From assembly GCA_965204735.1 (NCBI GenBank), contig OZ242008.1:448001-512000 (forward strand): DNA of 64,000 bases, written 5' to 3'. Origin of the DNA: Longimicrobiales bacterium. GTDB taxonomy: Bacteria; Gemmatimonadota; Gemmatimonadetes; Longimicrobiales; Gaopeijiaceae. A program made the translations under genes and the position numbers. Shown one piece after another: positions 27,301 to 47,195 of this stretch (positions are counted from its first letter, which is position 1; every line of letters starts with the position of its first letter). Below the pieces are notes generated by a model. The model was not told where the DNA came from. It did no database searches and saw only the letters and a list, made by a program, of their open reading frames with translations.

Positions 27301-28219
27301 TGCGGTACAGCGTCTGTTCGTCCAGGACGACTCGGCGCTCCTCGATGCCGCCGGCCTTCGCGGGCACGCGATAGACGTTGCCGCTGCCCAGGGCCACGTC
27401 CCGGTTGGAGACCAGCAGCAGCTCGTCGCCCCCCGGAAGCCACGCCGGCGAGATGTGCATGTCCCACGAACCGAAGTAGAGTCGGTCGCGCCCGAAGGAG
27501 TTGTCCTCGGTGACCGCTTCGGGCGGGCCGGTCCAGCGACCGTCGGCGAAGGGGCGGACGTAGACGTTGAAGTATCCGCTGGGCGCCGTGGAGACGTACG
27601 CGATCCGGCTCCCGTCCGGCGAGAAGCGGGGGTCGGCATGAACGTGGCGGGGGTCGCCGGGGCTGGTCGGGCCGGGGCTGGTCGGGTTGCCGGGACTGGT
27701 CGGGTTGCCTGGGTCGGTCGGGTCGTCGGGGTTGGCCAACTCGCCGGGGCCGGTCAGAGACAGACGCTCGCCGGTGGCGGTGTTCATGACCTCGAGGGCT
27801 ATTGCGCCGCCCCCGTCGTCGGCGGTGTAGACGAGCCACTCGCCGCTTGGGGAGTAGTTGGGGGACGAGTAGTAGTCGGCGCCGTGGACGACCTCCACGG
27901 CCGTGCCCGTGGCCGGGTCCACTTCCCAGATCGAGCCGCTCATCGACACGGCGATCCTCTCGCCGTCGGGACGCCACTCCGGATACCAGGGGGACGAGGC
28001 CGGGGCGGGGGGAAGGTAGAAGTTGTGCATGTAGTTGCCGCCGTGGGCGGCCGCGGGGTAGGCGCGCTGGGCGGCCGCGGCGGCGGTCGGCAGGACCGAA
28101 GCGAAGACCGAGGCCAGGACCAGGACGGCCGGCAAGGCCGAGCAGGCGGGCGGGAGCTTCGCGGCGCGGGTCCCGGCGGAACCGGCGGGAGACCAAGGAT
28201 GGAAGGAATGGCGGGTCAT
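24356..28219 (-). CDS. Fusion: PD40/TolB repeats + CehA/McbA-family (PHP-like) metallohydrolase + BNR/Ycf48-like propeller
   Basis: PEWRPDG/PRFSPDG/PRWSPD repeats; WFSGSTHVHMNY, GQEYRPPFYGH, GGEDS, AFTNPVWV; then LLRTDDGGGSW/YATRDGGESW Asp boxes. Confidence 0.82.
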   Translation of the reverse strand: MTRHSFHPWSPAGSAGTRAAKLPPACSALPAVLVLASVFASVLPTAAAAAQRAYPAAAHGGNYMHNFYLPPAPASSPWYPEWRPDGERIAVSMSGSIWEVDPATGTAVEVVHGADYYSSPNYSPSGEWLVYTADDGGGAIALEVMNTATGERLSLTGPGELANPDDPTDPGNPTSPGNPTSPGPTSPGDPRHVHADPRFSPDGSRIAYVSTAPSGYFNVYVRPFADGRWTGPPEAVTEDNSFGRDRLYFGSWDMHISPAWLPGGDELLLVSNRDVALGSGNVYRVPAKAGGIEERRVVLDEQTLYRTQPDVAYDGKRFVYSSTAGAADQFQNLYVQPTVGGEPYKLTFFRHDAFHPRWSPDAEWIAFVANGEASAGAHGDGGGDGLPHLHLLETNGGALRKVEITERRWARPMGTLSVATLDQAGRAMATRVHLEAADGKFYAPADAYARVSREGDRVFHHPGSFTVELPVGPARITVVRGFETRPDTRQVEIREGEVAALAVVLEEVSDVSDDGWFSGSTHVHMNYAGNLRNSLSNLMMMSAAEDQDVVNEQVANKDNRVLDHQYWVPGGGAHPLSEPERMLVVGQEYRPPFYGHVFMFGHRDHLIAPYATGYEGTAIESLYPSNTDMLRKAKAQGATTGYVHSFYSGDPLEGNLGGAKGFIVDAALAAADAVEWSTPQDGWPPLYAVWNNGFRVAAVGGEDSISSLHATPLVGSMRTYVRTRDGGLSMDGWFAGLRAGRAYASSGPLIEFSVDGRGPGGDVELDAPGQVSVRGRVWSVVALDRAELVFNGEVVREWAFDGNRRELSMDERVAVPGSGWFHLRVEGRREDRWPLDTTYPQAFTNPVWVRVAGRPVRSAAAADYAVRWIDKLEAMAREWPGWRSEREKEHVFAQFEEARQIYRRRGAEAGGGAEAGGDLEAGGGEDAGGNPEAGGDPEAGRAAGTDRGAGAEGDATEGAGGADPIVAEQESGVAMVLQAVSVVSEEVAWAGGHGGVLLRTDDGGGSWRRVSAPGGDSLQFRDVHAFSWESAVAMTSGSGPSSRIYATRDGGESWRLDFLMDEPDGFLDCLDFWDADRGFAYGDSFDGVPYVLVTGDGGKRWSRVLPRDLPPAAGSEGGFAASGTCALAGPSGQGWIGTGAGDAARLLVTRDYGRRWTATALPLPAGPAAGAFTLAAGGGELAMALGGDLRAQDQVVANAAATPDGGTSWTEAAPVPVPGAVYGSAVAVSSAGRRVVAVAPPGAAYTADSGRSWQPIPGVSAWAVAFAPEGRVGWAAGEGGRIWRIDW

Positions 28220-28356
28220 GGCGTCTGGGCAGCTCGGGAAGCGGCGGGCGCGACAGGTGAACGTTTGCCGCCCGGTGATCGTACCGCTGCACAAGCGATC
28301 GCACCAACGCCCACGAACGCACCAACGCCCACGAACGACGAGAGGAACCGGCTGAA

Positions 28357-28908
28357 ATGACTGAAGCCGCCGAGACCGAAGACCGAAGCGGCGCTCTCGC
28401 GTCGCAGGACGCGACCGACAACGAGCAGGACGCGACCGACCAGGATCGGCGCCCCAGGGACCGGCTTCCCGAGGGCCCGCGCCCGTTCGGCGTCGATCGC
28501 TTGCCCCCGCTCGCGGGGTGGCCCCGGCGTCCGCTGCTGCGGTGGACCTGCGGCGGCGCGGCGGCGGTGGCGGCCGTCGTCCTTCCGTTCTTGCTGGGAC
28601 GAGCCTTCGGACCGGCGCTGCGCGGAGCGGCCATGGTGACCACCGCGACCAGCCCGGCGGCTTCGGTGGTCGCGTTCGACGACGCTTCCCGGACCGCCGC
28701 CGCGTTCATGGCGGGCAGGGACACCGCCACGGTGAGGGTGCGCCGGCCGACGACGGCCCGCGAACTCCTCCGCCTCTACCACCTGGAGAACAACCTTTCG
28801 GCCCGGGCCGCGCTCCTGGAACAGCTTGGGGTTGCGGACCTGGAGACCGTGCTGCCCGAGGGCTCTTCCTTCTCCTTCGTGCTCTCGCCGGAACGCCTGG
28901 AACCGTGA
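28357..28908 (+). CDS. Single-TM hypothetical protein with possible LysM-like C-terminal domain (operon gene 1)
   Basis: TM AAAVAAVVLPFLLG; tail VRVRRPTTARELLRLYHL...LPEGSSFSF resembles the LysM pattern. GAGAGG RBS. Confidence 0.6.
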   Translation: MTEAAETEDRSGALASQDATDNEQDATDQDRRPRDRLPEGPRPFGVDRLPPLAGWPRRPLLRWTCGGAAAVAAVVLPFLLGRAFGPALRGAAMVTTATSPAASVVAFDDASRTAAAFMAGRDTATVRVRRPTTARELLRLYHLENNLSARAALLEQLGVADLETVLPEGSSFSFVLSPERLEP

Positions 28909-29525
28909 GCGGGAGGGACAGGCGCGCGCAGGACGGGCAGGAACGCGAGCAGGTGCTGTACGAGCGCGAGCAGGAGCTGACGAAGCTGTACCGCCAGGTC
29001 CTGGAGGCGGTCCGCGAGGACGCCGAGGAGGCGATCGGGGAAGCAGTGCGAAGCGCGGCGCCGACGGCGGCCGACTGGGAAGGGATCGTGCGGCGCGTGG
29101 TGCGGGAGGAGATGGCGGGGGTCGCGCCCGCCGGAGCCGAGGGGGCCGGTTCGGCGCCCGCGCGCAAACCGGCTTCGAAGCTGTGGCCGACGTGGGCTGC
29201 GGCCGGCGTGGGCGCCGTGGGGGCGGCGATGCTCGTGGGAGCGGGGTGGTGGATGGGAAGGCTGTCGGGACCGTGGCCGGAGAGGGCGACGGACGCGGGC
29301 GGCGTTCCAGCGGTCGCGACGGACACGACGGCTCCGTCCGTGGACGCGACGCCGGACGGAGCGGCGGACACGGCGGCGGGCGTGAGGACGGACACTCTGA
29401 TGGACATTACGACGGACACAATGGGCGCAAACGGCAATCTTTTGCAGGTCGTTCCGCCGGACACGACACCGGACAGTGCAAGGGACATTTTGGGCCTCGA
29501 AATCTTGCCGAAAGGTGTCCCGTGA
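28905..29525 (+). CDS. Single-TM hypothetical protein: N-terminal helical region, low-complexity T/D/A tail (gene 2)
   Basis: GTGA overlap; TM WAAAGVGAVGAAMLVGAGWW. Confidence 0.65.
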   Translation: MSGRDRRAQDGQEREQVLYEREQELTKLYRQVLEAVREDAEEAIGEAVRSAAPTAADWEGIVRRVVREEMAGVAPAGAEGAGSAPARKPASKLWPTWAAAGVGAVGAAMLVGAGWWMGRLSGPWPERATDAGGVPAVATDTTAPSVDATPDGAADTAAGVRTDTLMDITTDTMGANGNLLQVVPPDTTPDSARDILGLEILPKGVP

Positions 29526-31615
29526 CCGTGGCGGGGTCGGGCGCGAGCGGTTGCGGGGCGCAGCGCCGGCGCCTGGACCGCCACCTCTTCGCGTCCAACG
29601 TCTCCGCCTACAACTCGGCGTGGGAGACCTACGGCTGGACCGAGGGGCTGGACCGGGTCCGGGCGGGACGGCTGGAGGAGCGGGTGCCGTGGGGCGCCGA
29701 GCTGGCGGAGTCGGCCGATCCGCCGACGCTCGTTCATGGAGGCGCCCCTGGCCGAGGCGCCGCGTCGCAAGACCCCGCCCTGGGGCCGATAGGACTGCCG
29801 GAAGCCTTCCTGCCGCTGGACGGCCGCCTCGGCTTCTGCCTGTCGGGCATCGTGCGGCCTTCGCACGACGGAGCGCCCGCCCGTCGGCCTCGCATCGCAA
29901 CCCATACGCTCCTCTTCCACGAGTCCCTCTTCCGGGAGATCGACGGCTTTCCGCAGGGTCTCCACCTGGACTTGCCGGCGACCACGGACGGCGCGGAGGC
30001 GAGTTGGTTCGCCCAGCTCCGCCGCTCCGCGCCGGCGGCTCCGGGAGTGCTGGCCGAGCCTCGGTACGCGCCGAATCCGCAGGGGTTCCGCCGCGCCCGG
30101 CTGCAAGAGGTGGCGAGACTGGCGCGGGCCGCAGTCGCCGCGCTTGGAGCCCATCCGGCCCGGGAAGCTCTGGAGGAGGTGTACCGCGCCGTCGGCGGAG
30201 TGCTCGAACCAGCCGGCGACGCAGGGCGGGGGAAGGTCTCCGCCGGAGGTCCCGTCCGGGTGGCAGGAGGACGGCGCGGGGCCTGCCTTCTCATGCGCCT
30301 GGCTTGGCTGTCGCTGCCGCTGGCGGATCGCGCCCGCGTCTTCTACTCGATCCTCGACCTTCGGGGACGGCATCCGACTCCCTGCCTGGTTCCCGGGGCC
30401 GGGGCGCCCGCGTCTGCCCCGGGCACCGCACTGGACCCGCGCACCGCACCGGCCTCCCGCGCCGCACTGGCCGACTCGGGCGGGCCGGACCCCCTGGGCG
30501 CATGGGCCGCGCTGGTTCTCGGGGCGCCGAAGGAGTACGCCCGCGTCGGCGCCAGGATCGACGCGAGGGGCATGTCTCTCTATCGGCGGGAGAGCGAGCC
30601 CTATGTCGTCCACTGGGCGCCGGCGCGGCTCGGGGCGGTCGATCTGCTGGAGCGGGCCCGCCTCGAATCTCGGGGCGCCGGGCGGTGGCGAGGGCTTGGC
30701 CGGCTGGCGGCGGCGGACTTGGGCGCGCGGTCGCCGGACCGACCGGCGGAGTGGGTCGAGGCCGTGCCTCGCGACCCGCTCCTGGCGAACAACCGCCGCT
30801 TTCACGAGGGACTGGTTCGCGGGCTCGGCGGCAGGCTTCCCGTCGCCGGCGAAGCGGGACCGCCCGAAGCGCGGGTCGCGACGGCGCGCTTGGCCGTCTT
30901 GGCAGGCACCCGCGCCCGCCGTCGGGAGGACGACGTACCCGGCGGCCCGACTGTTGACTCGGGCCAGGTCTTGGCGGACACGCGCGCCCGCCGTCGGGAG
31001 GACGACAGACTGGCGCTGCTGGTCAAGGGGATGCGGTCCTTGGCGGAAGCCGGCGCCGACGCCGGCGAGCTCGGGGCCGCCGTCCGAGGAACGCAAGAGC
31101 ACGACGGGGACGAGGCGGTCGGGCTGGCGGGCATCGCCGCCCAGATTCTTGGGTCCCTGGGCCGGGGCACCGACGTCCCGACGATGGTGGCGGCCGCCGG
31201 CCTCCCGGATCCGATCGCCCCCGCCTTGGCCCGGGACTTGGTCGAGGTGTTCCTGGCCGGGTCCAATCGAGCGCGTTCGTCTTGGCAGGCCCTGCTGGAA
31301 AGGGTCTGGACGAGCGCCGCGGCTTCCCGTGCGACAGGCTCGGACCCCTCGGACCCCGGCCATGCGGAGTTGGAAGCGCTTCAGCGGCTGGCGTGGATCG
31401 AACGGCGCAGGTGGGGCTCCACGCCCCTAGTCTCCCTGGCGGCGAAGGGCCGACCCGGAGCCCTCGCCTTGGCGCGCCGTCTCATGGAACACGAACCCGG
31501 GCCGCCGCTCTCCGTGTTCCTGGCGCTGAGGGCGGTCGTGGTGCGCCGCCCGGCTGGGGCCCGCCGTTCCTTGGCACGAGGGCGCTCCTCCCGCAACACG
31601 GCCGGCTCGGCATGA
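29522..31615 (+). CDS. Hypothetical protein with GAP1-N-like (GTPase-associated protein 1) N-terminal domain (gene 3)
   Basis: GTGA overlap. N-terminal RHLFAS..YGWTEGL and HDGAPARRPRIATHTLL resemble the GAP1-N D..GR....H pattern. Directly upstream of a GTPase. Confidence 0.55.
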   Translation: MTVAGSGASGCGAQRRRLDRHLFASNVSAYNSAWETYGWTEGLDRVRAGRLEERVPWGAELAESADPPTLVHGGAPGRGAASQDPALGPIGLPEAFLPLDGRLGFCLSGIVRPSHDGAPARRPRIATHTLLFHESLFREIDGFPQGLHLDLPATTDGAEASWFAQLRRSAPAAPGVLAEPRYAPNPQGFRRARLQEVARLARAAVAALGAHPAREALEEVYRAVGGVLEPAGDAGRGKVSAGGPVRVAGGRRGACLLMRLAWLSLPLADRARVFYSILDLRGRHPTPCLVPGAGAPASAPGTALDPRTAPASRAALADSGGPDPLGAWAALVLGAPKEYARVGARIDARGMSLYRRESEPYVVHWAPARLGAVDLLERARLESRGAGRWRGLGRLAAADLGARSPDRPAEWVEAVPRDPLLANNRRFHEGLVRGLGGRLPVAGEAGPPEARVATARLAVLAGTRARRREDDVPGGPTVDSGQVLADTRARRREDDRLALLVKGMRSLAEAGADAGELGAAVRGTQEHDGDEAVGLAGIAAQILGSLGRGTDVPTMVAAAGLPDPIAPALARDLVEVFLAGSNRARSSWQALLERVWTSAAASRATGSDPSDPGHAELEALQRLAWIERRRWGSTPLVSLAAKGRPGALALARRLMEHEPGPPLSVFLALRAVVVRRPAGARRSLARGRSSRNTAGSA

Positions 31616-32979
31616 GCGAAGAGCGCTCCGAGAGCCAAGTCGCCCGGATTCTGGAGCGGCTTCGGAACGAGGTCATGCGGGAGAGGGCCGGCGACGCGCC
31701 CGCTGCCGAGGTTGCCCCCGCCGCCGAAGACGCGGCGGCCGCGGAAGACGGGCCGGAATCGGCGCATCCGGCGTCGCCAGCCCAGGGGTTCCCGGCTCCG
31801 CCGCCCGATGGTTCGCCGCCTGCGTTTCCGACTCCCGTCGCCCGGACGCCCGACGAGCGGTCGGCGGACGAGCTCCGCCCACGGGCTACCCGCGCCGGTC
31901 GCCGTCGCGGCTCCCCAGGCCTGCACAGCAAGCGGGTGCAGGCGGCGGACCGCTCCGCATCCTCCACCGCCGTCGAGGAGCTCGTGGAGCACCGTCGCCG
32001 GAGGCGGGGCAAGCTCTTCGGCATCGCCGGACTTCCCCGCCACGGCAAGACGACCCTGGCCGACCGCCTGCGGGAGCGCGCCGCCGATCGACCGGGGGCC
32101 GACCTGCGCTACAACAAGACCGAGCGGGGCGACGTCAACATCTACTACCTGCCCGGCAGGCGGGACCACCACGTCCTGGTGGACATGGCGGGCGAGGACT
32201 ACCAAGTGCTGGGGGACTACGAACGGGAGCTGCCCCAACTCATGGAGGCGTTCCTCTGGCCGGTCCTCCAGCGGCTGGACGGATTGGCGCTTCTCATGGC
32301 GCTGCCCGTCGTCTGGTCGGGCTGGAACCGCGGCGACGATCCGCGCCGCCGGGCGCCCTCGTCCGACGAGCAAGAAGAGATGGCCGCGGCCGCGGAACGC
32401 ATGGCGAACGCCCACAAGATGCTGCTGAAGTACGCGGTGGTGGCGCTGAAGTCGAAGGCGGCCCGCCCTCCCACCCGGGACCAGGTGGACGACGCCTTCA
32501 AGCGGGCGCCCAAGTACGACCGACCGGTCGCAGTCGTGCTCTCCAAGGCCGACCTCTACACCGGCCGCGCGCGGGACCGCCTTCACACCCCCGACCTGCC
32601 CCGGCTGGGCCACCGGACGCCCGTCGGGCTGCGGCCGGGCGTGTCGGAGCCCCTGCTGACGGCCGCCGCCCACTTCCCCGACTTCCTGGAGTTCCTGGAG
32701 CGCCGAGTGCGGTGCTTCAAGTGGTCGTTCTGCCAGGCGCTGGAAGACCGAAGCCCCGAACCGGACCCCTTGGACGCGGCGGGCGACGCGGAACCGGGCA
32801 CGAACACTCTGATCGGCGGCGACGGGGTGGTGGACTTCCTGGCCCGCCATCCGTGGCGGGCGCCCGGCCTGTCGTCGGCCATGGCGATCCGGCTGGACCG
32901 GCGCATCAGGCGCGAAGCGTGGAGCCGACTCGGGCAAGAGCGGCGGTCGGCCCCGAATCCCGCCGGGCGCGAGGGCTGA
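31612..32979 (+). CDS. TRAFAC-class GTPase, double-GTPase-like (gene 4)
   Basis: G1 GLPRHGKT (32029), G2 NKT, G3 DMAGE (32182), G4 SKAD (32542). Long disordered N-terminus; ATGA overlap. Confidence 0.82.
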   Translation: MSEERSESQVARILERLRNEVMRERAGDAPAAEVAPAAEDAAAAEDGPESAHPASPAQGFPAPPPDGSPPAFPTPVARTPDERSADELRPRATRAGRRRGSPGLHSKRVQAADRSASSTAVEELVEHRRRRRGKLFGIAGLPRHGKTTLADRLRERAADRPGADLRYNKTERGDVNIYYLPGRRDHHVLVDMAGEDYQVLGDYERELPQLMEAFLWPVLQRLDGLALLMALPVVWSGWNRGDDPRRRAPSSDEQEEMAAAAERMANAHKMLLKYAVVALKSKAARPPTRDQVDDAFKRAPKYDRPVAVVLSKADLYTGRARDRLHTPDLPRLGHRTPVGLRPGVSEPLLTAAAHFPDFLEFLERRVRCFKWSFCQALEDRSPEPDPLDAAGDAEPGTNTLIGGDGVVDFLARHPWRAPGLSSAMAIRLDRRIRREAWSRLGQERRSAPNPAGREG

Positions 32980-32980
32980 G

Positions 32981-35008
32981 GTGGGCTGGGCGACGGTCTT
33001 CGGCGTCGGCGCCCGCCGGGTGGCGCCGGACGGCCCGGCGCGGTGGGTTCTGCTCGGGACGTGCGTCGCCGTGGGCGCGGCCTGCGCTTGGATGGGCCGG
33101 TCGCTGCTCGGGTCGGCGCCGGCCGAGGACACGCTGGCCAGCGCGCACCGGTTCCTGGACCAGCCCCTGCGGCTGGGGCGAGCACTGGACGTGTCGTGGC
33201 GCTTCGCGGTGAGGGACGGCGGCGGGATGGCCGGGCGCGTGGACGACCTGCTCGCTCCGCCCCTGCCTCCCTTCCTGTGCTCGGCGAGGTGGCCCGGCGC
33301 GAGGGCCGACGAGGCCCGCGTGCTCGATCGGACGATCCGCCAAGCCCAGCAAGCCGCAGCGGCCGACAGTCGCGCCGGTCTCGCGAACGCGGTCGAGTCG
33401 CTCGAGAACCAAGTCGCAGCCGCGTCCGCCGCCGCCGAGCCCTTGGCTCTCTACGCCGTTGCGCGGGCAAGGGCCGCCGGCGGGGACTGGTCCGGCGCCG
33501 CCCGCGCGCTCGAGCTGGTCCCCCTCGTGCAGCGCGGAGGCGGGCCGCTGCCGGTGGTGCCTCGCTCCGCCGCCGCACAGGGCGTCGGGTCGGCGGGCGC
33601 GCCGCGCTCCCTGGCGGTTCTGGCCTTCCACGCGCGCTACCTGGCGGGCAGGGCGGCTCACGGCCGAGGCCGTCCGGAAGACGCGATCGGTCACTTCCGC
33701 CGCGCTCTCAACGCGGTCCGCTACGTCCTGGACGGCTCTCGCGGAGCCGGACCTGGAGGGCACTTCCGGCGAATCGAGATGCGGCCCGGGGTCCTCTCCT
33801 GCTCCGGCGCCGCGCAACCCGGCCTCACGTCGCTGGACGCCTACTCCGGGCTGGTGGCGGCCTACTTGGCGGCCCCGGAGTTCCGCGACCCGGAGGGCTT
33901 GGCCGGCGAAGTCGCCCGCCGTCGTCTGGAGATGGACCCGGGCGACCCGCTGGCGCCTCTGGTTCGGTACGCCCAGCAAGCGGCCGCCGACGCTCGGCCA
34001 GCCCAAGGCTCGATCCCCGAGAACGTCCTCTGGGCGGCGTCCAACTTGCAGCGGGTCTACCACTACAACCGACTGCGCCCGGACCCTCGGCTTGCCGCCG
34101 GCAGGGCCGTCCTGACTTGGCAGGTGCTCGACCGCCCGGAATGGACGCGGGCGCTGGAGCTGAACGCGCCGGCGCAGTGCGAGATGCTCGCCGGCGTGGC
34201 CGCCGGAGTGGGACGGGAGGGCGGGACCATCGGCGGTCCGGCGGGCTCGGCGGCAGCCGGCGACAGCGCCTGGGCGGCCGTGGCGGTCCACACCTTCGCC
34301 CGCCTGGAAGAGCGGTGTCCCGAGGGAGCGGACGAACCTGTGGCCGAATCGGTCCGAGAGCGATGGCTGGACAGATCGGGAGGGTTCATTCACGGGGGAG
34401 TGGTGGTCCGCTACGAGGCGCGGCGGCGAGAGCTGGAGGCCGGAGGGAGAGGCGTCGGGCTTTCGGGCGGAGCCGCGACGGGAGCGGGCGAGGTCCTGGA
34501 CGAGGCTCGAAGCCACGTTCGGACGTTCTGCCAGGGCGCGGTGCCGCCGGACCTGAGCGCAGGGATCGATCCCCGCGCGGCGTGCGAGTTCGTGTCGGCG
34601 TGGAGGCGGGCCGTCTTCCACGACGTGGCCGACCAGATGGTCCAGCAGGTGCGCGGCGGCGGCGTCCCCGCGGCCCGGGACGCGGCAGAGTACGTGCGGA
34701 CGGTGGAGGCCGCCGTCGCCCATGCGGGCCTTCGTCCGTCCGATGTGTACGGCGTCGAGGAAGTGGCCCCGCTGCTTCGGTCGCAGGGGGGCGTCCGCGC
34801 CTGGAGCGGAAGGCTGCGCCATGCCGCCCGGAACCGGCCCGCGACCGCCGTGGCGGCGCTGGCGTTGCTGGGCGTCGCCGGGGTCTCGCTGGCTGTGCTG
34901 GCCTTCGTGAGCTGGTGGCGGTTCTTCCTGCTGACGCGAACGGACTTCTACGCCGACGAGGCCGCCGAGCGGAGAGCCCGCGGGCACGCCCGGGAGCTGG
35001 GTCCGTGA
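32981..35008 (+). CDS. Membrane protein with two TM segments flanking a large helical/TPR-like domain (gene 5)
   Basis: N-terminal TM WVLLGTCVAVGAACAW; TPR-like ARYLAGRAAHGRGRPEDAIGHFRRAL; C-terminal TM AVAALALLGVAGVSLAVLAFVSWW. Confidence 0.7.
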   Translation: MGWATVFGVGARRVAPDGPARWVLLGTCVAVGAACAWMGRSLLGSAPAEDTLASAHRFLDQPLRLGRALDVSWRFAVRDGGGMAGRVDDLLAPPLPPFLCSARWPGARADEARVLDRTIRQAQQAAAADSRAGLANAVESLENQVAAASAAAEPLALYAVARARAAGGDWSGAARALELVPLVQRGGGPLPVVPRSAAAQGVGSAGAPRSLAVLAFHARYLAGRAAHGRGRPEDAIGHFRRALNAVRYVLDGSRGAGPGGHFRRIEMRPGVLSCSGAAQPGLTSLDAYSGLVAAYLAAPEFRDPEGLAGEVARRRLEMDPGDPLAPLVRYAQQAAADARPAQGSIPENVLWAASNLQRVYHYNRLRPDPRLAAGRAVLTWQVLDRPEWTRALELNAPAQCEMLAGVAAGVGREGGTIGGPAGSAAAGDSAWAAVAVHTFARLEERCPEGADEPVAESVRERWLDRSGGFIHGGVVVRYEARRRELEAGGRGVGLSGGAATGAGEVLDEARSHVRTFCQGAVPPDLSAGIDPRAACEFVSAWRRAVFHDVADQMVQQVRGGGVPAARDAAEYVRTVEAAVAHAGLRPSDVYGVEEVAPLLRSQGGVRAWSGRLRHAARNRPATAVAALALLGVAGVSLAVLAFVSWWRFFLLTRTDFYADEAAERRARGHARELGP

Positions 35009-38000
35009 CCGTCCTGGTTCTGGGGCTGGCGACGCTCCTCGGCGCGGGCTGGATGGCGCGCCGATCGACGCCCGGCCGCCGCTCGTGTCTTTGGGTCCTC
35101 GCCATCGGCGCCTTGACGGCGGGGCAGACGTGCTGGCAGCGCGACCGCTTGGCGTCGTACCAGGTGAGGCTGCTGGGCCAGCGCTTCCAGCCGGGGAGCG
35201 ATGGCTTGGTCGCCGAGGTGTCGGGCGACAGGGACCGGGCGGACTACTACCTGCCCGGCGCCGGGAACGATCCCGTGGCCGTCCTGCAGCTCGACTCGGC
35301 GGGCGGGGTCGCGGTGCGGGCGCCCGCGCCGACCTCGGCGGCAGCCGTCGCCGTGGTGACTACGCCTCGTCGCTGGAGGGGCGGAGATCGGGTCGTGCTG
35401 GGCTCCGTGCCCGTGGAGCCGGGAGATCGGATTTGGGTCGGCGGCGAGGGCGCGACCGAGGTGTTCACCTTCGCGCGGTCGAGGGTCTCCCTGCTCCAGA
35501 GGGCGAGGATCGGGGGGACGCGGGACCAGCTGGCGCTCGGAAGCGGCGACGCCGGGGACGCGGGGGGTCCAGCGGCGATCGTGCCCTACCCGGAAGGCGC
35601 CGGAGTCCTGGGGCTCCTGCCACGGCGCCCCGGCGTCTACCAACGCACCTATCCGCTGGCCGAGCTGGCGGCCGCAGGAGGATTCGACGGGCTGGGCGTG
35701 GCGGGCCTCCGCTCCTTTCTCTACTACCGCGAAGGCTCGGCTCGCTTGGCGGTCCTGGACGACCTGGTCGAGGTGCTCTCGCCCGACGGGACGGCCAAGA
35801 CGCCGGTCGAGAGCGCTTCCGCATGGCCGGGGAGCGGGCGAACGCCGGTGGTGACCGTGGCGGGCTTGCCGTACCGGGACTTCCCCGACCCGGGGCTCGC
35901 GGCCGGCGAGCGGTACGGGGCGAGGCCGCTCCGCAGCTTCCGCGCCCGAGTGGACGGAGAGTGGATCACGGTGCAGGGCGCGCGGGCGGAAGTGCACTCC
36001 GTCGAGACGGCCGGGCTGCCTCCCGCAACCCTCGCCCCCTCGGCCCTGGCGGGCGGGTCTGGAGGCGGTTCGATGCTTCACTTGGTCCGCCTGGCGGTCG
36101 GAGACGCGCCCGAAGGACCCGCGGGGCTGACCCTCGCATCCCCTGCCAACGTGTTCGCGGCGGCGGGAGAGGCGGTCCTGCGGCTTCCCCAAGCTCCGTC
36201 CGCCGGATGGTTCGAGCTCCTGTCCCCCTCGGGTCAAGCCCGCTGGGAGACCGGACGACCCTTCACCTTGAGCGACGGGGAGAAGGGGTTGCTGCTGCGG
36301 GTCGACGGGCTGGCCGCCTCCTGGTCGTTCCTGCTGCTGCTGACGCTGCTCTTCCTCTTGGCGGCGGCTCCGTTCGCGCTGGTCGAGACCACGGGCGTGG
36401 TGCGGGGCTTGGCCCTGGCCGCCCTGGGAATCGCCGCGCTCCGCGTGCTCCTCTCCCTCTCCGCCATGGCGCGCTACCCCTTCGTGGACGAAGGCCACCA
36501 GATCGGCCTCTGGCTGGTCCCGGCGCTGCCTTGGTTCGTGTGCGCTCTTGGACGCAAGCGCGGCGAGACGTGGGCTGCGGACGGGGCCGGGCTCGCCCCC
36601 GCCGCCCGCGCCCCCGCCATGGCGCCGCCCGGCGCGGGGCGTCGAGACGTTCGGCCTTCAGCCCCGTGGAGCGCGCGGGCCGACCTTGCCGCGGCAGCGC
36701 TCGGCGCGCCGCTGGTCTTCCTGGCGGCCGCCCTCTTCCCGACCACTCCCGCCAAGTCGCTTGTGCTCTCCGCCGCCGTCGTCTGCGCGGCGGTGGTCGC
36801 CCTGCTGCCCATGGAACGCACCTTGCTGGCCTTCGGGCGCAGCGCGGCCCGGCTGCGCCGCCTGGCCAAGGCGCTTCCCGCCCGGCTTCGGAAGACGGCC
36901 GCCAGCTGGCCGGGCGCGGTGGCGGGAGTGGCGATCGTGGCGGGCCGGGTCGTGCTGGACGCGGCGGGGTTCAGGGAGCAGATCGCCTTGGGCGGCACCC
37001 GAATCGGCCTTTCCGTGCTGCACACCCCGGTCGCCCTGATCGCCTTCGCCCTCCTGGCGTCGGCTCACCACCGGCGTGTCGCCCGTGCGGGACGTGGCCG
37101 GGTCGCCGGTGTGGGACGCGCTCGCGTCGCCCCGGCGGAAGACGGCCGCGCCACCCCCACGGAAGACGCCCGCGCCACCCCGACGGAAGACGCTCGCGTC
37201 GCCTCGGCGGAAGACGGCCGCGTCACGGAAGACGGTCTCGCCGCCCTGGCGGAAGACGCCCGCGCCACCCCCACGGAGCGCGCCGGTTGGGGCCGCACCG
37301 CCGGTCGCTCGCTGATCGACCTGTGCGCCTTCCTAGCCTTCGCCTATGTCGGCACAAGCGTGGCGGTCTCCGACTTCGGAGTCGCCTTCACCACCCTGCC
37401 GGGTCCCCTCGTCGTCCTTGCCCTGGTCGGTGCGTGGTGGGCAAGAGCGCGAGCCCAGGGCCGGGCCGACGGCGGCGGCAAGCGCACAGAGAGCATCCGC
37501 GCCGCCCCCGGCAGCTGGTGGCAGGCCAAGGGCGTCGACCGCAGGGCGGCTCTGCTGGCCGCGCTGCCGCTGATCTTGTTCGCGACGCTCCAGGCGGCCC
37601 CCGGCTTGCTCCGTCCCTTCTTGCCCGACACGGAGGGTCCCAGGTCCGGGCTGGAGGAGTGGAGCCGCAACGAGCTCCTGCTGCTGGAGCGGGGCGACCC
37701 CGACGCCCTGCGGCTCATCGGCGAGAGCCGGAGCGAGGCCCTGGCGGTGATGCGCGAGACGATGCGTTCCTACACCCGTGGCAACTGGTTGGGACAGGGG
37801 TTCCTGGAGGGCCGCGTGTCGTCGCAGATACGCACCACGGCGACCCGCGAGCACGTGGTCACCGGGTTGCTGGCCAGTCAGTGGGGAGCGCCTGGGACGC
37901 TCGGCCTTCTGGCCCTCCTGGCTGCGGTCCTTCGCCCGCTGGCGTCGGCGGCTCGTCCCTGGTCGAGCCGCGCCCACTTCGTCTCGGCGACGGCTCTTCT

Positions 38001-38220
38001 GACCTTCTCGACGGCCGGCGTCTACATGGTCTTCGCCAACTACGGCTGGGCCATGTTCACGGGCAAGAACGTCTACCTGCTGGGGCTCGACTCCCTGGGC
38101 GACACCCTTGAAGCCCTGGCCTTGCTGGGAGTGGCGGCGGCCGCGCTGGCCCGGCCGGAATCGGCGGACCGGAGTCCTCCCGGCGCCCCGCTTCTCCCAG
38201 CCCCCGGAGGCTCGGCATGA
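35005..38220 (+). CDS. Divergent SEDS (FtsW/RodA/SpoVE-like) polytopic membrane protein with large N-terminal beta-rich domain (gene 6)
   Basis: Many TM helices with SEDS-like landmarks in order: SDFG, GNWLGQG, TATREHVVTGLLASQWG, FTGKNVYLLGLDS. Adjacent to a PBP; GTGA overlap. Confidence 0.65.
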   Translation: MTVLVLGLATLLGAGWMARRSTPGRRSCLWVLAIGALTAGQTCWQRDRLASYQVRLLGQRFQPGSDGLVAEVSGDRDRADYYLPGAGNDPVAVLQLDSAGGVAVRAPAPTSAAAVAVVTTPRRWRGGDRVVLGSVPVEPGDRIWVGGEGATEVFTFARSRVSLLQRARIGGTRDQLALGSGDAGDAGGPAAIVPYPEGAGVLGLLPRRPGVYQRTYPLAELAAAGGFDGLGVAGLRSFLYYREGSARLAVLDDLVEVLSPDGTAKTPVESASAWPGSGRTPVVTVAGLPYRDFPDPGLAAGERYGARPLRSFRARVDGEWITVQGARAEVHSVETAGLPPATLAPSALAGGSGGGSMLHLVRLAVGDAPEGPAGLTLASPANVFAAAGEAVLRLPQAPSAGWFELLSPSGQARWETGRPFTLSDGEKGLLLRVDGLAASWSFLLLLTLLFLLAAAPFALVETTGVVRGLALAALGIAALRVLLSLSAMARYPFVDEGHQIGLWLVPALPWFVCALGRKRGETWAADGAGLAPAARAPAMAPPGAGRRDVRPSAPWSARADLAAAALGAPLVFLAAALFPTTPAKSLVLSAAVVCAAVVALLPMERTLLAFGRSAARLRRLAKALPARLRKTAASWPGAVAGVAIVAGRVVLDAAGFREQIALGGTRIGLSVLHTPVALIAFALLASAHHRRVARAGRGRVAGVGRARVAPAEDGRATPTEDARATPTEDARVASAEDGRVTEDGLAALAEDARATPTERAGWGRTAGRSLIDLCAFLAFAYVGTSVAVSDFGVAFTTLPGPLVVLALVGAWWARARAQGRADGGGKRTESIRAAPGSWWQAKGVDRRAALLAALPLILFATLQAAPGLLRPFLPDTEGPRSGLEEWSRNELLLLERGDPDALRLIGESRSEALAVMRETMRSYTRGNWLGQGFLEGRVSSQIRTTATREHVVTGLLASQWGAPGTLGLLALLAAVLRPLASAARPWSSRAHFVSATALLTFSTAGVYMVFANYGWAMFTGKNVYLLGLDSLGDTLEALALLGVAAAALARPESADRSPPGAPLLPAPGGSA

Positions 38221-40814
38221 ACACACGAACCGCGACGGGGGTCGTCTCCGGCCTGTCCGTCTTGATCGTCGTCGCGTCCCTTCAGGAGGAGCCGGCCGGG
38301 TACTGGGCGCCGGAAGGCTTCGTGAGCCGGTCGGACGACATTGTGGCCAAGGGCGGGCTGGAGCTCATTTGCGGCGCGCGCGACTCAATCGTGGTCCGCT
38401 TGGAGCCGGACAGCCCCGACGAACGCTTCTTCCGGTCCAGCTACCTGCGGGCCGACGTGCGACGCTTCAACGCCGACCCTTCCGCCGCCCGCTCGCCGTT
38501 CCTGGTGGATGGTTGCCGCCTCTTGGGCGTGGACCCCTTCTACCATCGGGTCGACCTGCCCTACAACCGCGTTCCCCAGTGGACGGGACCCGTCCGCTTC
38601 GCCCAGGCCAGCCGAAGCGCCGCCTTCCGCGGCGGGCGGGACCAGCGCCTGCAGGTGGTCCATCCCCTGGAAAGCTTGGACGCAAGCACGAGCGAGCGGG
38701 TGGGGCTGGCTCGCCGACGGGCCTCTGCGCGCACCGAATTCCTTCGCTTCGAGGCGCCCCGCAGCCCGGAAGTGCTGGCGGAGGCGTACTTCGTGGGCGA
38801 CGAAGCGCCCGTGCTGGCGGACCGTCGGGACGTGGGCGCGCCCTCCATGCTGCGGCTGAACGGGTTCGCCGTGCCGCCGGGCCGGATCGCCCGGCTGGAG
38901 ACGGGGGACTGGGTCCAGCTGCAGCACCGGGAAGAAGTCTTCACCTACTTGGTGGACGGTTCGGACCGAGCCGGGCTGGTGTCGACGGCGTCGGCGGCGA
39001 ACGGGGGGACGCGACGGTACCTGGTCCCCCACCTGGCGCCTTTCGTGAGCGACTTGGCCCGGGCCCTGGAGGGCGGCCTCCACTCCACGCCCTCGGCCCG
39101 GGACGGCGGACCCGTCTCCCGCATGGAGGTACGCCTGGCCCTCGACCGGGAGCTGGAGACGACGACCCAGGCGCTGGTGGACGAGTGGTGCGAGCGGCAG
39201 CGCCTGCCCCGCCGTCCCCGAGCGGTTTCGGCGCTGGTCATGGACGCCTTTCGAGGAGACGTGCTGGCGATGCCCACCTGTCCCGGCGAGGCGGTCCTGG
39301 AAGACTACGGCCAGCTCTCGCGCCGCCTCCGGTCCCGCTACCTGCGCAACCAGAACCTGGTCCTGCACCCGGGCGGCTCGGCGCTGAAGCCGTTCTGGGC
39401 CGCCTCGATCGCCACGGCCTACCCCGGACTGCTGGACCTGGAGATTCCGGAGCACCCGCCCGGCGGCGTGGAGGACGTGTTCGGCTGCGCCTTGACCGTG
39501 CCCTACGGGTCCGGCGGACACGAGGGATGGGAAGGGTTGGAGGCGTTCCTGCGCACCTCGTGCAACCGCTACATGGTGGAGGCGGCCACGGCGGCGCTCC
39601 TGGCCGGCGCTGGGAGCCTGCCCGAGGGCTTGGCGCAAGGGTTGCCCGGACGGAACTCGCCCGGACGCGGCCCGCCCGGCCAGGGTTCGCCCGGACGCCT
39701 GCTCGCGGACGGCTCTCCCGCGCCCAGCGGCGCCAAGCGGGAAGTGCGCTTCTGCGACCAAGTGGTCGAAGTGGCGCTCGCCGACGGCCTGCCTTTCACC
39801 GGCGGTTCGTGCGAGGACCTTCGCCTTCTCGGCGAACGCTTCGCCCCCGGGCTTTCCTTCGAGCAGGTGACCGGCGCGGCCGTCTACCGCGATCGGGCGC
39901 CGGCCGCCGCTGCCGCCGGGGCCGAAGCCGCCAGCTTGGACGACGCCTACCGAGCGGGACGCTACCGGCTGGACCTCTGGCGCGGTCCCCTCGACGCCCT
40001 GCGGGTCGCCGGGGACACGGCGAACCCCGTGCACACGCGCCTGCGCTTCTCCGCCGTGTCGCCCCAGGTCACCAACTTGGCCCTCAACACCGTCGAGGAG
40101 CTGCGCCGGGACTGGGTGAACCTGCTCCTGGGCGGCGAGAACTCGCGCTGGAGCAACTTTCAGCTGGCCGAGGCCATGTCGCGCCTCATGACCGGCCGGG
40201 ACGTGCGGGGTCGGTTCGTCGTCTCTCCCACTGCGTGGGGAAGGGAGGCGGTCGGGTCCGCCGAGCCCCTGCCGGAAGACGCCCTGCACCCAGGCGCGCG
40301 CCGCCGGGTGCTCCACGCGATGGAACGGGTCGTTGGTCCCGGCGGCACCGCGGTCCGCCTTGCCCCGGCTGCGCGCCGTCTCGAGTCCGTGCTGCGCTCC
40401 GTGCCCGGCGCCGAGGACCACGACGTCTACGTCTTCGCCAAGACCGGAACGCCTGCCGTGTCCGTGCCCCTGCGAGACGGCCCCTTGACCCGGGAGGGGT
40501 CGGTGCTGGTCCTGGGCGTGCTCGTCGTGCCCCCGGAGGCGGGCCGCCGGGCCTCTCGCCGCCAGCCGGAGTGGATATCCGCGTGCCCGCTGGCGCCGGA
40601 CCTTCGGGCAGGCGTGCTGGGCGTGCCCCCTGTCGACTTCCTGGGCGACAGCTCTGGGCCGGGCGCCGCGCCGATGGGCTTCTCGGTCGCGTTCTTCCTG
40701 GACGACCTGGACCCTCGGGGCGGCGACGCGTCTGCGACGGAGCTGGCTGCCGACTTCCTGGAACCCTTGGCCAACTACGCCGCCCAGCGACTGGAACGGC
40801 AGCTTCGCAGGTAA
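38217..40814 (+). CDS. Penicillin-binding transpeptidase-domain protein (class B-like) with possible FHA-like N-terminal region (gene 7)
   Basis: VRLALDRELE, ALVMDAFRGDVLAM, SxxK = SALK (39378), SxN = SCN (39558), KTG (40440). Confidence 0.85.
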   Translation: MNTRTATGVVSGLSVLIVVASLQEEPAGYWAPEGFVSRSDDIVAKGGLELICGARDSIVVRLEPDSPDERFFRSSYLRADVRRFNADPSAARSPFLVDGCRLLGVDPFYHRVDLPYNRVPQWTGPVRFAQASRSAAFRGGRDQRLQVVHPLESLDASTSERVGLARRRASARTEFLRFEAPRSPEVLAEAYFVGDEAPVLADRRDVGAPSMLRLNGFAVPPGRIARLETGDWVQLQHREEVFTYLVDGSDRAGLVSTASAANGGTRRYLVPHLAPFVSDLARALEGGLHSTPSARDGGPVSRMEVRLALDRELETTTQALVDEWCERQRLPRRPRAVSALVMDAFRGDVLAMPTCPGEAVLEDYGQLSRRLRSRYLRNQNLVLHPGGSALKPFWAASIATAYPGLLDLEIPEHPPGGVEDVFGCALTVPYGSGGHEGWEGLEAFLRTSCNRYMVEAATAALLAGAGSLPEGLAQGLPGRNSPGRGPPGQGSPGRLLADGSPAPSGAKREVRFCDQVVEVALADGLPFTGGSCEDLRLLGERFAPGLSFEQVTGAAVYRDRAPAAAAAGAEAASLDDAYRAGRYRLDLWRGPLDALRVAGDTANPVHTRLRFSAVSPQVTNLALNTVEELRRDWVNLLLGGENSRWSNFQLAEAMSRLMTGRDVRGRFVVSPTAWGREAVGSAEPLPEDALHPGARRRVLHAMERVVGPGGTAVRLAPAARRLESVLRSVPGAEDHDVYVFAKTGTPAVSVPLRDGPLTREGSVLVLGVLVVPPEAGRRASRRQPEWISACPLAPDLRAGVLGVPPVDFLGDSSGPGAAPMGFSVAFFLDDLDPRGGDASATELAADFLEPLANYAAQRLERQLRR

Positions 40815-41005
40815 GCGGTCCGGCGCCCATCTTGCCCCCGGGGCGCCCGACGTGGAACGCCGCCGGCGCTGCCGTGTCGTCCGTTTTCGGTCCGCCCATC
40901 TTGCCCCCGGGCCTCTCGACGCTTCACCTTGTCGCCTGGAGCGCAAGCCGTTGCCCACGAGCGCAAGCACCGGCGCAAGCCAAGCGTCACTTCCCGGAGG
41001 ACCTC

Positions 41006-43051
41006 ATGCTCAACTTCCGCCCCGCCTTCCCCCTCGCCGCCGCCTCCGTCGCGGTCGCACTCGCCGCGTCCGTCTTCTCGTCGCCCGCCGCGGCCCAGGA
41101 CGAGCCCGACGGCGTTCTCAAGCTGGCGACCTACCTGGACTGGGAGTGGGTCGCGAACCCCCAGCTCTCCCCCGACGGCAGCCAAGTCCTCTACACGAAG
41201 TCGTGGGTGGACAAGATCAACGACCGTCGCGAGTCCTCGATCTACCTGATGAACGCCGACGGCACCCGGAAGCGCTTCCTGGTGGACGGCTCGTCGCCCA
41301 AGTGGTCTCCCTCCGGCGACCGGATCGCCTACACCGCTTCCGGCGAGCCCAGCGGCAGCCAGATCTTCGTGCGCTGGATGGACGACGAGGGCGCCGTCAC
41401 CCAAGTCACCCGCGTGACCAAGGGTCCCGGCAACGTCGAGTGGTCGCCCGACGGAACCCAGATTGCCTTCACCATGTCGGTGTCGTCGGACAACCCGTGG
41501 CCGATCTCGCTGCCCGGCCGGCCCGAGGGCGCCAAGTGGACCGAATCGCCCAAGGTCGTGGATCGCCTCCAGTACAGACGCGACCGGCGCGGGTACATAG
41601 ACGAGGGGTACACGCACCTCTTCGTCGTTCCGGCGGAAGGCGGGACCGCCCGGCAGCTCACCGACGGCGACTGGAACCACAACGGCGTCGCCTGGACCCC
41701 GGACGGCCGCGAGATCCTCTTCACCTCCTTGCGGGTGGAGGACGCGGAACACGAGTGGCGCCAGTCCGACATCTACTCGGTGACGGTGGCCACGGGCGAC
41801 ATTGCGCGGCTCACCGACCGCTCCGGTCCGGACGGCTCCCCCGTGCCTTCTCCCGACGGCCGGCTGATCGCCTACACCGGCAACGACCTCACCACCGACA
41901 CCTACATCACACGCAAGCTCTACGTGATGAACCGCGACGGCTCGGGCTCGCGCATGATCAGTCAGGGGTTCGACCGTCAGCCCAGCGGCCTGCTCTGGGC
42001 CGAGGACGGGAGCGGCTTGTACATGAACGTCAGGAACGAGGGGACGAGCAACGTCTGGTTCGCCTCGGTGGACGGCGGCGTCGAGCAGGTGACCGAGGGC
42101 AATCACATGCTGTCGGCGTCGTCGATCGAGGGCGACATGGCGGTGGGCACGCTCTCGGCCTACCACAAGCCCGGCGACGTGGTCGCGTTCTCGTTGCGCA
42201 GCCCGGGCGACATGACCCAGCTCACCGACGTGAACGCCGACGTGCTGGCGGGCGTCTCGCTGGGCGAAGTCGAGGAGGTGTGGTACAAGTCCGTCGAGGA
42301 CTACGACATCCAGGGTTGGATCATCAAGCCGCCGGACTTCGATCCGTCGCGCAAGTACCCCATGATCCTGGCGATCCACGGCGGACCCCACGGCATGTAC
42401 AACGTGGGCTTCAACTTCGGCTGGCAGAACCACGCCGCCAACGGCTACGTCGTGCTCTACACCAACCCCCGGGGCTCGTCGGGCTACGGCAGCGCCTTCG
42501 GCAACTCGATCAAGAACGCCTACCCCGGCAAGGACTTCGACGACCTGATGGCGGGCGTGGACTTGGTGATCGAGCAGGGCTACGTGGACGAGGACAACCT
42601 GTTTGTGTACGGGTGTTCCGGCGGGGGCGTGCTCACGTCGTGGGTGGTGGGCCACACGGACCGCTTCGCCGCCGCGTCGGCCAACTGTCCCGTCACCAAC
42701 TGGCTGTCGTTCGTGGGCACCACCGACGGCGCGAGCTGGTACCGCAACTTCGAGAAGTTCCCCTGGGACGACCCGTCGGAGCACCTGCGCCGCTCGCCCC
42801 TCATGTACGTGGGCAACGTGACCACGCCCACCATGCTCATGACGGGCGAAGGCGACCTGCGCACGCCCATGCCCCAGACCGAGGAGTACTACCAGGCGCT
42901 GCGGGTGCTCAAGGTCCCCACGGCCATGGTGCGCTTCAAGAACGAGTGGCACGGCACCAGCTCCACGCCGTCCAACTTCCTGCGGACCCAGATATACCTG
43001 CGCGAGTGGTTCCAGAAGCACGGCCGGGGAGGGTCGGTCACGGAGGAGTAG
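41006..43051 (+). CDS. S9 family (prolyl oligopeptidase/acylaminoacyl) peptidase with PD40 propeller
   Basis: Signal peptide; IHGGPH, NPRGSSGYG, nucleophile GCSGGG, GEGDLRTP, NEWH. GGAGG RBS. Confidence 0.93.
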   Translation: MLNFRPAFPLAAASVAVALAASVFSSPAAAQDEPDGVLKLATYLDWEWVANPQLSPDGSQVLYTKSWVDKINDRRESSIYLMNADGTRKRFLVDGSSPKWSPSGDRIAYTASGEPSGSQIFVRWMDDEGAVTQVTRVTKGPGNVEWSPDGTQIAFTMSVSSDNPWPISLPGRPEGAKWTESPKVVDRLQYRRDRRGYIDEGYTHLFVVPAEGGTARQLTDGDWNHNGVAWTPDGREILFTSLRVEDAEHEWRQSDIYSVTVATGDIARLTDRSGPDGSPVPSPDGRLIAYTGNDLTTDTYITRKLYVMNRDGSGSRMISQGFDRQPSGLLWAEDGSGLYMNVRNEGTSNVWFASVDGGVEQVTEGNHMLSASSIEGDMAVGTLSAYHKPGDVVAFSLRSPGDMTQLTDVNADVLAGVSLGEVEEVWYKSVEDYDIQGWIIKPPDFDPSRKYPMILAIHGGPHGMYNVGFNFGWQNHAANGYVVLYTNPRGSSGYGSAFGNSIKNAYPGKDFDDLMAGVDLVIEQGYVDEDNLFVYGCSGGGVLTSWVVGHTDRFAAASANCPVTNWLSFVGTTDGASWYRNFEKFPWDDPSEHLRRSPLMYVGNVTTPTMLMTGEGDLRTPMPQTEEYYQALRVLKVPTAMVRFKNEWHGTSSTPSNFLRTQIYLREWFQKHGRGGSVTEE

Positions 43052-47182: not shown

Positions 47183-47195
47183 CGTGGCGCGCCTC

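Follow-up and report, generated by a model that had tools for sequence, protein, structure and literature searches.

The locus and gene g6

The window analyzed here, a 64,000-nucleotide stretch of contig OZ242008.1 (assembly GCA_965204735.1, positions 448,001 to 512,000) from a Longimicrobiales bacterium, contains an operon of seven genes lying head to tail from 28357 to 40814. Our subject is the sixth of these, g6, which encodes a large membrane protein predicted to share the fold of the SEDS polymerases RodA and FtsW. The main parts of g6 are as follows.

35005..38220, + strand: g6, a divergent SEDS-fold protein of 1071 amino acids with 15 predicted membrane helices
35155..36312, + strand: beta-rich domain (aa 51–436), predicted to be periplasmic, that probably contains an FHA/SMAD-type sandwich with large inserts
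36376..38166, + strand: membrane core of predicted SEDS fold (aa 458–1054), from VIA-align comparison with RodA, FtsW and WaaL
37078..37285, + strand: 24-nt tandem repeats, up to 4.5 copies, encoding a low-confidence insert (aa about 692–760) in a predicted cytoplasmic loop of g6

The reading frame has 1071 codons; its GTG start overlaps the stop codon of the upstream gene, and at its other end the stop codon overlaps the ATG of the following gene. An earlier note, made from the letters of the window, had described an open reading frame of about 1070 codons here as a SEDS-like protein with a non-canonical catalytic loop, and both of the motifs that it quoted are present: TATREHVVTGLLASQWG at ~37837, with T945 starting at 37837, E949 at 37849–37851 and H950 at 37852–37854, and FTGKNVYLLGLDS at residues 1018–1030. 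As homologs are numerous, with 59 at E ≤ 0.001 (of 8000 candidates scored) and 257 in a library of 50%-identity representatives (the best 150 of the 257 were listed), g6 is a real gene, beyond chance.

Pfam gives no family for g6 at E ≤ 1, and NCBIfam gives a single match with an E-value of 0.34. A Pfam scan of 48 homologs finds PF01098, the SEDS family, in none of them (there is one stray YrhC match, E 0.023), and PDB sequence searches with g6 and with a 132-row family profile return no SEDS match. The family profile set against the single FtsW sequence of its own genome reaches a probability of only 0.5, which is not significant. In contrast, when a family profile of the membrane part is compared with a canonical SEDS profile built from 11 sequences of fetched loci, the two match with a probability of 92.9 (E 3.6e-7) and E949 falls over the catalytic Asp. 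Additionally, the family profile recovers a canonical FtsW (locus L033) in a genome search (E 4.2e-6), and an ESM Atlas feature search with g6 leads to PF01098 clusters with a score of 0.93. We found no description of the g6 family or of a Glu-type SEDS protein in the literature searched, most subscription papers lying outside its coverage.

Predicted fold and topology

The AlphaFold2 model of g6, made with a 77-row alignment, has a pLDDT (predicted local distance difference test) of 86.8 and a pTM (predicted template modeling score) of 0.89. It was compared by VIA-align with Foldseek's top chains, 976 of which were aligned, and the five best rows are all RodA or FtsW, with Z-scores of 18.9–20.5, root-mean-square deviations (RMSD) of 3.7–4.6 and 320–328 aligned residues that cover the whole SEDS chain. 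RodA 8tj3_B (Z 20.5, RMSD 4.4, 328 aligned) and FtsW 8p1u_A (Z 19.3, RMSD 4.2, 323 aligned) are accompanied by 6pl6_A (Z 19.5), 8bh1_A (Z 19.1) and 6pl5_A (Z 18.9). The earlier note had set an O-antigen ligase-like or unrelated fold against its own reading, and neither was found: the O-antigen ligase WaaL (7tpg_B) comes next after the SEDS chains with a Z-score of 9.6 (RMSD 5.1, 325 aligned), and unrelated helical proteins do not exceed 7.6. Together, the VIA-align comparison, the independent profile match and the ESM Atlas search make the SEDS fold of g6 a well-supported prediction.

From a reading of DSSP assignments plus hydropathy, we count 15 membrane helices, namely two at the N-terminus, one after the beta domain, ten equivalent to those of SEDS proteins, and two inserted. 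Loops rich in Lys and Arg (19–26, 516–553, 601–635 and 816–845) alternate with the SEDS outer loops. The first SEDS helix starts in the cytoplasm, and since an extra helix (440–459) precedes it, residues 51–436 are predicted to lie outside; the basic loop that joins the two helices of the N-terminus agrees with this placement.

These residues are almost all beta in the model and correspond to the beta-rich domain of about 400 amino acids that the earlier note had placed before the membrane core, although they are themselves preceded by two membrane helices and are predicted to be extracytoplasmic. Folded alone, the domain has a pLDDT of 91.6. In a structure search against 48,161 representative chains, FHA and FHA-like domains make up the majority of the 50 listed rows, and we take the untitled rows to be FHA-like domains of secretion systems. 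The best row has a Z-score of 7.7 (RMSD 3.0, 89 aligned), no row comes up to the tool's caution level of 8, and all of the matches are discontinuous; no single fold in this library spans the whole domain, and Foldseek with the N-domain finds no match at E ≤ 0.001. The domain is probably an FHA-type sandwich with large inserts. FHA domains bind phosphothreonine through residues of their GR and SxxH motifs. In the g6 family the GR motif is not kept, G74 being followed by Asp in 72 of 132 rows and otherwise by Ser or Ala, not Arg, and neither Ser nor His is conserved in columns 81–99, where SxxH was sought. The FHA likeness proposed earlier is therefore supported as a probable fold but not as a function: a phospho-sensor role is unlikely, and a cytoplasmic phospho-sensing FHA domain is discarded in view of the predicted topology and the absent motifs.

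The catalytic position

Asp262 of E. coli RodA is essential and has been proposed to deprotonate the acceptor (PMC10449877). Both hhalign and MAFFT L-INS-i place E949 of g6 over this catalytic Asp.

37849..37851, + strand: Glu949, putative catalytic base, equivalent to RodA Asp262 by the profile/profile and L-INS-i register and by conservation

A sample of 189 proteins was used to follow this column; 176 matched the C-terminal model and 166 covered the position. It is Glu in 121 and Asp in 45, so that the E/D conservation for which the earlier note had suggested a check extends to 166 of 166 homologs. Position 950 is His, Asn, Phe, Leu, Tyr or Ser, with His in 119 of the 166; His follows Glu in 118 of the 121 E-type homologs, while 44 of the 45 Asp-type homologs have Asn, Phe, Leu, Tyr or Ser. 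One branch of the family reads R-D-F, like the canonical T-D-F. Glu949, not His950, thus most likely occupies the catalytic Asp position, which upholds the departure from Asp that the earlier note had read as His/Glu and drops the His. The candidate equivalence of His950, which comes from MAFFT --auto and from an ungapped reading against RodA, is outweighed by hhalign, L-INS-i, the D-F branch and the conservation.

Dereplication at 62% identity kept 136 of 220 rows, and removal of 5 short ones left 131, in which column 949 is Glu in 75 and Asp in 56. A FastTree tree calculated with the motif columns removed requires four D/E changes, all forced by starred branches, and a 32-row IQ-TREE subset needs five. 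On this subset, the approximately unbiased (AU) test rejects two arrangements, one in which all E rows form one clade (p 6.1e-13) and one in which the EH clade (Glu followed by His) excludes the D rows nested in it (p 7.2e-6). A common origin of the EH group and the EN group (Glu followed by Asn) is rejected at p 0.007, a result that is tentative because the groups were named after the first tree was inspected and the model was simple. A column that holds only Asp or Glu through at least four exchanges argues against a pseudo-enzyme; such a column is under selection for a carboxylate, in keeping with a catalytic base rather than with a site in decay. Within clan GT-C1, which includes SEDS, Glu at the base position has a counterpart in BP-Pol families, and His in WaaL (PMC10920833).

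Apparent reversions from Glu to Asp are seen inside the EH clade (P0115, P0130, P0136, P0153, P0124, L065, L066 and L078). In the larger of these the neighboring His shifts as well, from E-H through E-Y to D-F.

The remainder of the active site

Three further elements of the site are listed here.

37372..37374, + strand: Asp790 of the D-[FL]-G motif, equivalent to RodA Asp159; Asp in 129 of 129 grouped rows
37666..37692, + strand: helix with Arg888, Leu892 and Arg896, in which the RodA Arg210 column is Leu and an Arg lies one turn to either side
38059..38070, + strand: T-G-K-N loop (aa 1019–1022), within the most conserved region of the family, in place of the canonical TG-x-x-LP

The Asp and Gly of the DLG motif, the GxG motif and the TG motif of SEDS proteins are all retained: G792 is Gly in 118 of 118 family rows, and G930, G932, T1019 and G1020 are invariant or nearly so. 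Beyond these, the canonical RW, QPSE..K, LP before the catalytic loop, and SYGG are replaced in both D-type and E-type members, and the family has invariants of its own (E658, R480, R648, K/R1021, N1022, S1030 and D1033). Glu658 is Glu in 77 of 77 rows where canonical rows have Arg or Ser, a reversal of charge. The exchange at the catalytic position is therefore one of many active-site changes common to the whole family, Asp-type members included, a point that the earlier note had missed. The four loops that line the SEDS cavity have the highest conservation in g6 (0.75, 0.58, 0.55 and 0.54, as against 0.35 for the beta domain).

The column of RodA Arg210 (892) is Arg in 43 of 43 D-type, 6 of 6 EN-type and 46 of 69 EH-type rows. 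In the 23 rows with Leu892, Arg888 is found in all 23 and Arg896 in 22, compared with Arg896 in 5 of the 46 that keep Arg892; the donor-site Arg appears to have shifted by one helix turn in the g6 clade. As judged from these alignments, the active site of g6 looks rebuilt, not lost, and an altered substrate is conceivable.

The operon and its surroundings

The other six genes of the operon are listed here.

28357..28908, + strand: g1, up to 183 aa (start uncertain), with a single hydrophobic segment and, at the C-terminus, a small conserved domain
28905..29525, + strand: g2, 206-aa coiled-coil-like protein with one hydrophobic segment
29522..31615, + strand: g3, 697-aa GAP1-like protein (weak assignment; the window copy has no Pfam match)
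31612..32979, + strand: g4, P-loop GTPase (motifs GxxxxGK[TS], D-x-AGE and SKxD) similar to the DO-GTPases
32981..35008, + strand: g5, 675 aa, a hydrophobic segment near each end, weak TPR matches below curated cut-offs
38217..40814, + strand: g7, 865-aa class B penicillin-binding protein (PBP)-like transpeptidase with S388-x-x-K391, S448-C-N450 and K742-T-G

The partner gene g7 matches PBP structures weakly (best E 0.0091, with SxxK aligned in another row), leads to PF00905 clusters by ESM features (0.92), and has one homolog that reaches the Transpeptidase cut-off. Its motifs are well kept in the family, with SxxK and SxN each in 51 of 51 rows, and Lys, Thr and Gly of the third in 48, 49 and 49 of 51, respectively. 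All three types of PBP motif are present, by pattern, in each of the 9 PBP neighbors found at D-, EH- and EN-type loci. A conserved L-E-T-G-D-W-V in the N-terminal part of g7 (38217–39300) resembles the L-x-x-G-D-x-I of the FHA-fold domain of g6, and g7 may carry a domain similar to it.

Neither g3 nor g4 of the window matches a Pfam model. The GAP1 assignment comes from the g3 homologs of loci L011 and L013, whose GAP1-M matches (E 0.00094 and 0.018) are both under the cut-off; BLASTP finds no significant match between g3 and its positional counterpart in L019, and GAP1 identity across phyla is therefore unsupported. In g4, the Glu after the Walker B Gly (D-x-AGE) is present in 11 of 11 aligned rows. 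No family of sugar synthesis or flippases was found among the seven genes with Pfam and NCBIfam. There is no sigma-70 promoter match, and terminator matches do not rise above those of shuffled sequence.

All seven genes occur in the same order at 5 of 18 related loci (L004, L005, L007, L008 and L010), and at four more the search missed only g2, or both g1 and g2. A PBP-like gene lies downstream at 16 of the 18 (15 of 17 if L020, from the unpublished genome G405, is left out), and L014 ends at a contig edge. At L016 (L016:2757-10876) the EH-type gene is preceded by a small g1 homolog and two P-loop genes. One of these is near the DO-GTPase2 cut-off (E 8.1e-6, 26.1 bits against 27) and has pairs of Cys that suggest a zinc ribbon.

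The operon is flanked by a 1312-aa PD40/BNR beta-propeller protein (24356–28294, − strand) and an S9 peptidase (40967–43051, + strand); of the related loci, only L004 has the peptidase close to the operon as well. A defense-like, Druantia-like island (43251–54092, − strand) lies about 2.4 kb beyond g7, with a UvrD-like helicase, an OLD/GajA-like ATPase and a DruE-like helicase of 2298 aa (PADLOC E 3.9e-95). It is set outside the operon since none of the five operon proteins scanned has a PADLOC match. The G+C content falls to about 0.60–0.62 at 54–58 kb.

Distribution

The named close relatives of g6 belong to Gemmatimonadota, and the more distant ones to Acidobacteriota, together with one Pseudoduganella. 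Since FtsW and RodA of the ordinary kind, with the usual catalytic loop, are both encoded in the genome of the window (G000) too, g6 is an extra gene. Genome searches, with two candidates scored per genome, gave matches in 12 of 401 sampled genomes of the window's phylum (5 EH-type, including G000, 6 EN-type and 1 canonical FtsW) and in 14 of 401 genomes from the phylum of G401, including two weak matches. The system is rare and patchy.

The EN group is a second, distant Glu lineage within Gemmatimonadota, with E-N at the catalytic position and a T-G-Q-N loop. It is found at L027–L032 (genomes G267, G080, G094, G045, G356 and G162) and also at L080 and L082, and a PBP-like gene whose motifs are intact lies downstream in 2 of the 3 regions inspected. 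Asp-type copies are carried by two cultured strains, Acanthopleuribacter pedis KCTC 12899 and Pseudoduganella umbonata CECT 7753, both with a P-loop gene before the copy and a PBP gene after it. In P. umbonata (L021:4252-7008), one gene joins the GTPase to a membrane segment and a long C-terminal region, where the window has separate g4 and g5.

Proposed function

We consider it moderately probable, from the residues kept and the predicted structure, that g6 is an accessory SEDS–class B PBP synthase that polymerizes lipid II with Glu949 as base, and by its predicted fold and gene pairing it likely works as RodA–PBP2 does. Lipid II would bind in the periplasm-facing cavity, its pyrophosphates held by Arg888 and Arg896 on the donor side, and also by the family-specific basic residues Arg480, Arg648, Arg657 and Lys1021. 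Glu949 would then deprotonate the acceptor 4'-OH, the role proposed for Asp262 in RodA; the longer Glu side chain may suit the segment after it, which is one residue longer, a segment that Asp-type members share. The strands would be cross-linked by g7 through Ser388. The periplasmic FHA-fold domain could serve as a scaffold or docking surface and not as a reader of phosphothreonine, and the GTPase/GAP1-like pair would gate assembly or activity from the cytoplasmic side, so that wall could be made locally when needed.

Several observations weigh against this proposal. With the full model, Foldseek alone finds nothing that reaches E ≤ 0.001, its five SEDS chains having probabilities of 0.89–0.99 and E-values of 0.03–0.26. 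The register at the catalytic loop is ambiguous by one residue in plain alignment, where MAFFT --auto places the canonical Asp over His950 because the g6 family has one extra residue between the acid and the next Gly. Column 892 is Leu in 23 of the 69 EH-type rows, g6 among them; these look like one clade, and compensation by Arg896 may have arisen just once. The mapping of E. coli RodA and FtsW residue numbers onto our motif columns was checked by spacing only. On this mapping, the columns of RodA Arg101, Trp102, Glu114, Lys117 and Pro257 and of FtsW Gln147, Pro196 and Gly381 are replaced family-wide, Asp-type members included; PMC10449877 and PMC8765783 report these residues as important in E. 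coli. Furthermore, the EH-type gene of L016 has no adjacent PBP in the available DNA, and control of the synthase by the GTPase, while likely, has gene order as its only basis.

A somewhat doubtful alternative is that g6 is an active GT-C transferase other than a plain lipid II polymerase, in which Glu949 or a Glu-His pair (compare the His base of WaaL) moves a modified lipid II or another undecaprenyl-pyrophosphate glycan, or joins or caps strands that g7 attaches to the wall. The family-wide replacement of acceptor-side SEDS residues, the charge reversal at Glu658, the new invariants K/R1021, N1022, S1030 and D1033, and the His that nearly always follows Glu would all suit such an enzyme, as would the place of WaaL as next structural neighbor and the breadth of clan GT-C1, which includes ligases and polymerases of many glycans (PMC10920833). 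However, a partner transpeptidase with its three motifs points to a peptidoglycan stem-peptide substrate, none of the seven operon genes matches a sugar-synthesis or flippase family, residue 950 is not His in 44 of 45 Asp-type homologs and so His is not a family-wide base, and the Z-scores to SEDS chains are about twice that to WaaL.

It is less probable still, and on balance unlikely, that g6 is a pseudo-enzyme or lipid II sensor, which would bind lipid II or undecaprenyl pyrophosphate, hold g7 and pass a signal to the GTPase in the cytoplasm, perhaps during envelope stress or conflict. In favor of it, g6 lacks many of the residues essential in canonical SEDS proteins, its clade has Leu in the Arg210 column, and the normal FtsW and RodA of the genome make catalysis by g6 unneeded for growth. 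Additionally, the neighbors resemble DO-GTPase/GAP1 conflict systems, and a Druantia-like island is close by, although that island is not part of the operon. Against these stand an acid kept in 166 of 166 homologs and 131 of 131 dereplicated rows through at least four exchanges, which is unexpected for a dead site, and the far more frequent Arg896 where Arg892 has been lost. Asp- and Glu-type members moreover share the operon type, and the partner transpeptidase is intact. Finally, that the SEDS likeness is a common helical arrangement only and g6 an unrelated membrane protein is scarcely credible and already largely refuted: the lack of Pfam, PF01098 and PDB-sequence SEDS matches and the high Foldseek E-values would allow it, but the Z-scores over the whole SEDS chain, the profile probability, the ESM features and the paired class B PBP-like gene speak against it.

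The earlier note had thus described a real feature and read it largely correctly, and its interpretation is borne out in part. Among the three roles that it offered, a Glu-using polymerase fits best, and a pseudo-enzyme or sensor fits worst because the column is acidic in all homologs examined, the operon type is shared, and the transpeptidase is intact.

SEDS polymerases are antibiotic targets whose chemistry has been pinned on one essential Asp and a few conserved cavity residues. The g6 family keeps the fold and the acid while most of the other residues are replaced, and it does so in natural Asp and Glu versions within the same operon type. A repeated exchange of Asp and Glu at the SEDS catalytic position inside a rebuilt site is surprising and directly testable; the natural versions are a ready-made test of what SEDS catalysis requires, and the cultured Asp-type strains make the system testable. 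Annotation misses this class of putative accessory wall synthases, possibly under GTPase control. More tentatively, g6 could represent a Pfam-invisible SEDS branch with a rebuilt site and a repeatedly switched Asp/Glu base, working in a GTPase-switched wall machine, possibly on non-standard lipid II or a local wall structure, with partners docked through the periplasmic FHA-fold domain.

Comparison with known systems

The operon recalls the DO-GTPase/GAP1 systems (Kaur et al. 2020, PMC7159879) in its membrane-bound components and in the Glu after the Walker B Gly of g4, a feature that the paper describes for DO-GTPases. In homologous loci alone, and below cut-off, the likeness extends to GAP1-M (in g3 homologs) and DO-GTPase2 (in L016). 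A term search of the main text and two supplement files of PMC7159879 finds no FtsW, RodA, PBP or transpeptidase component named, and with Pfam no GASH or FNIII gene is recognized among the operon proteins.

With WaaL (GT121) and the Wzy-type polymerases of clan GT-C1 (e.g. GT126), g6 shares, by prediction, the GT-C(B) fold, and in this clan the base position may be His, Asp or Glu (PMC10920833). The structural match is nevertheless much weaker than to SEDS (7tpg at Z 9.6 against about 20), the partner is a transpeptidase, and no polysaccharide synthesis genes are seen in the operon. Among 166 homologs, 949 is always acidic while His stands at 950 in just 119, which is not the pattern of an O-antigen ligase.

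FHA-SEDS fusions of about 490 aa, mostly from Bacillota, form an ESM Atlas cluster with PF01098 and PF00498 (score 0.88, a lead only); they have an FHA-type fold N-terminal to the SEDS core, as g6 probably does. Their FHA domain is detectable by Pfam, whereas the sandwich of g6 is interrupted, predicted to be periplasmic, and without the phosphothreonine motifs.

The closest parallel is with the SEDS–class B PBP synthases (RodA–PBP2, FtsW–FtsI and SpoVE–SpoVD; PF01098, GT119). Like them, g6 has a predicted 10-helix core with a periplasmic beta-hairpin loop and a long outer loop, the D-[LF]-G and GxG motifs, an acid at the catalytic column and TG in the last outer loop, and it adjoins a class B PBP-like gene with SxxK, SxN and KTG. 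It differs in its length of about 1070 aa where canonical proteins have about 400, in five additional membrane helices and a periplasmic domain of 390 aa with a probable FHA-type fold, all of them predicted, in Glu for Asp with one extra residue after the acid, and in the replacement of the canonical Trp, Glu, Lys and Pro of the cavity motifs; by profile score, catalytic Asp and several motifs it is outside PF01098/GT119. Whereas those synthases are core components, g6 is accessory and patchy, and it shares its operon with GTPase, GAP1-like and TPR genes.

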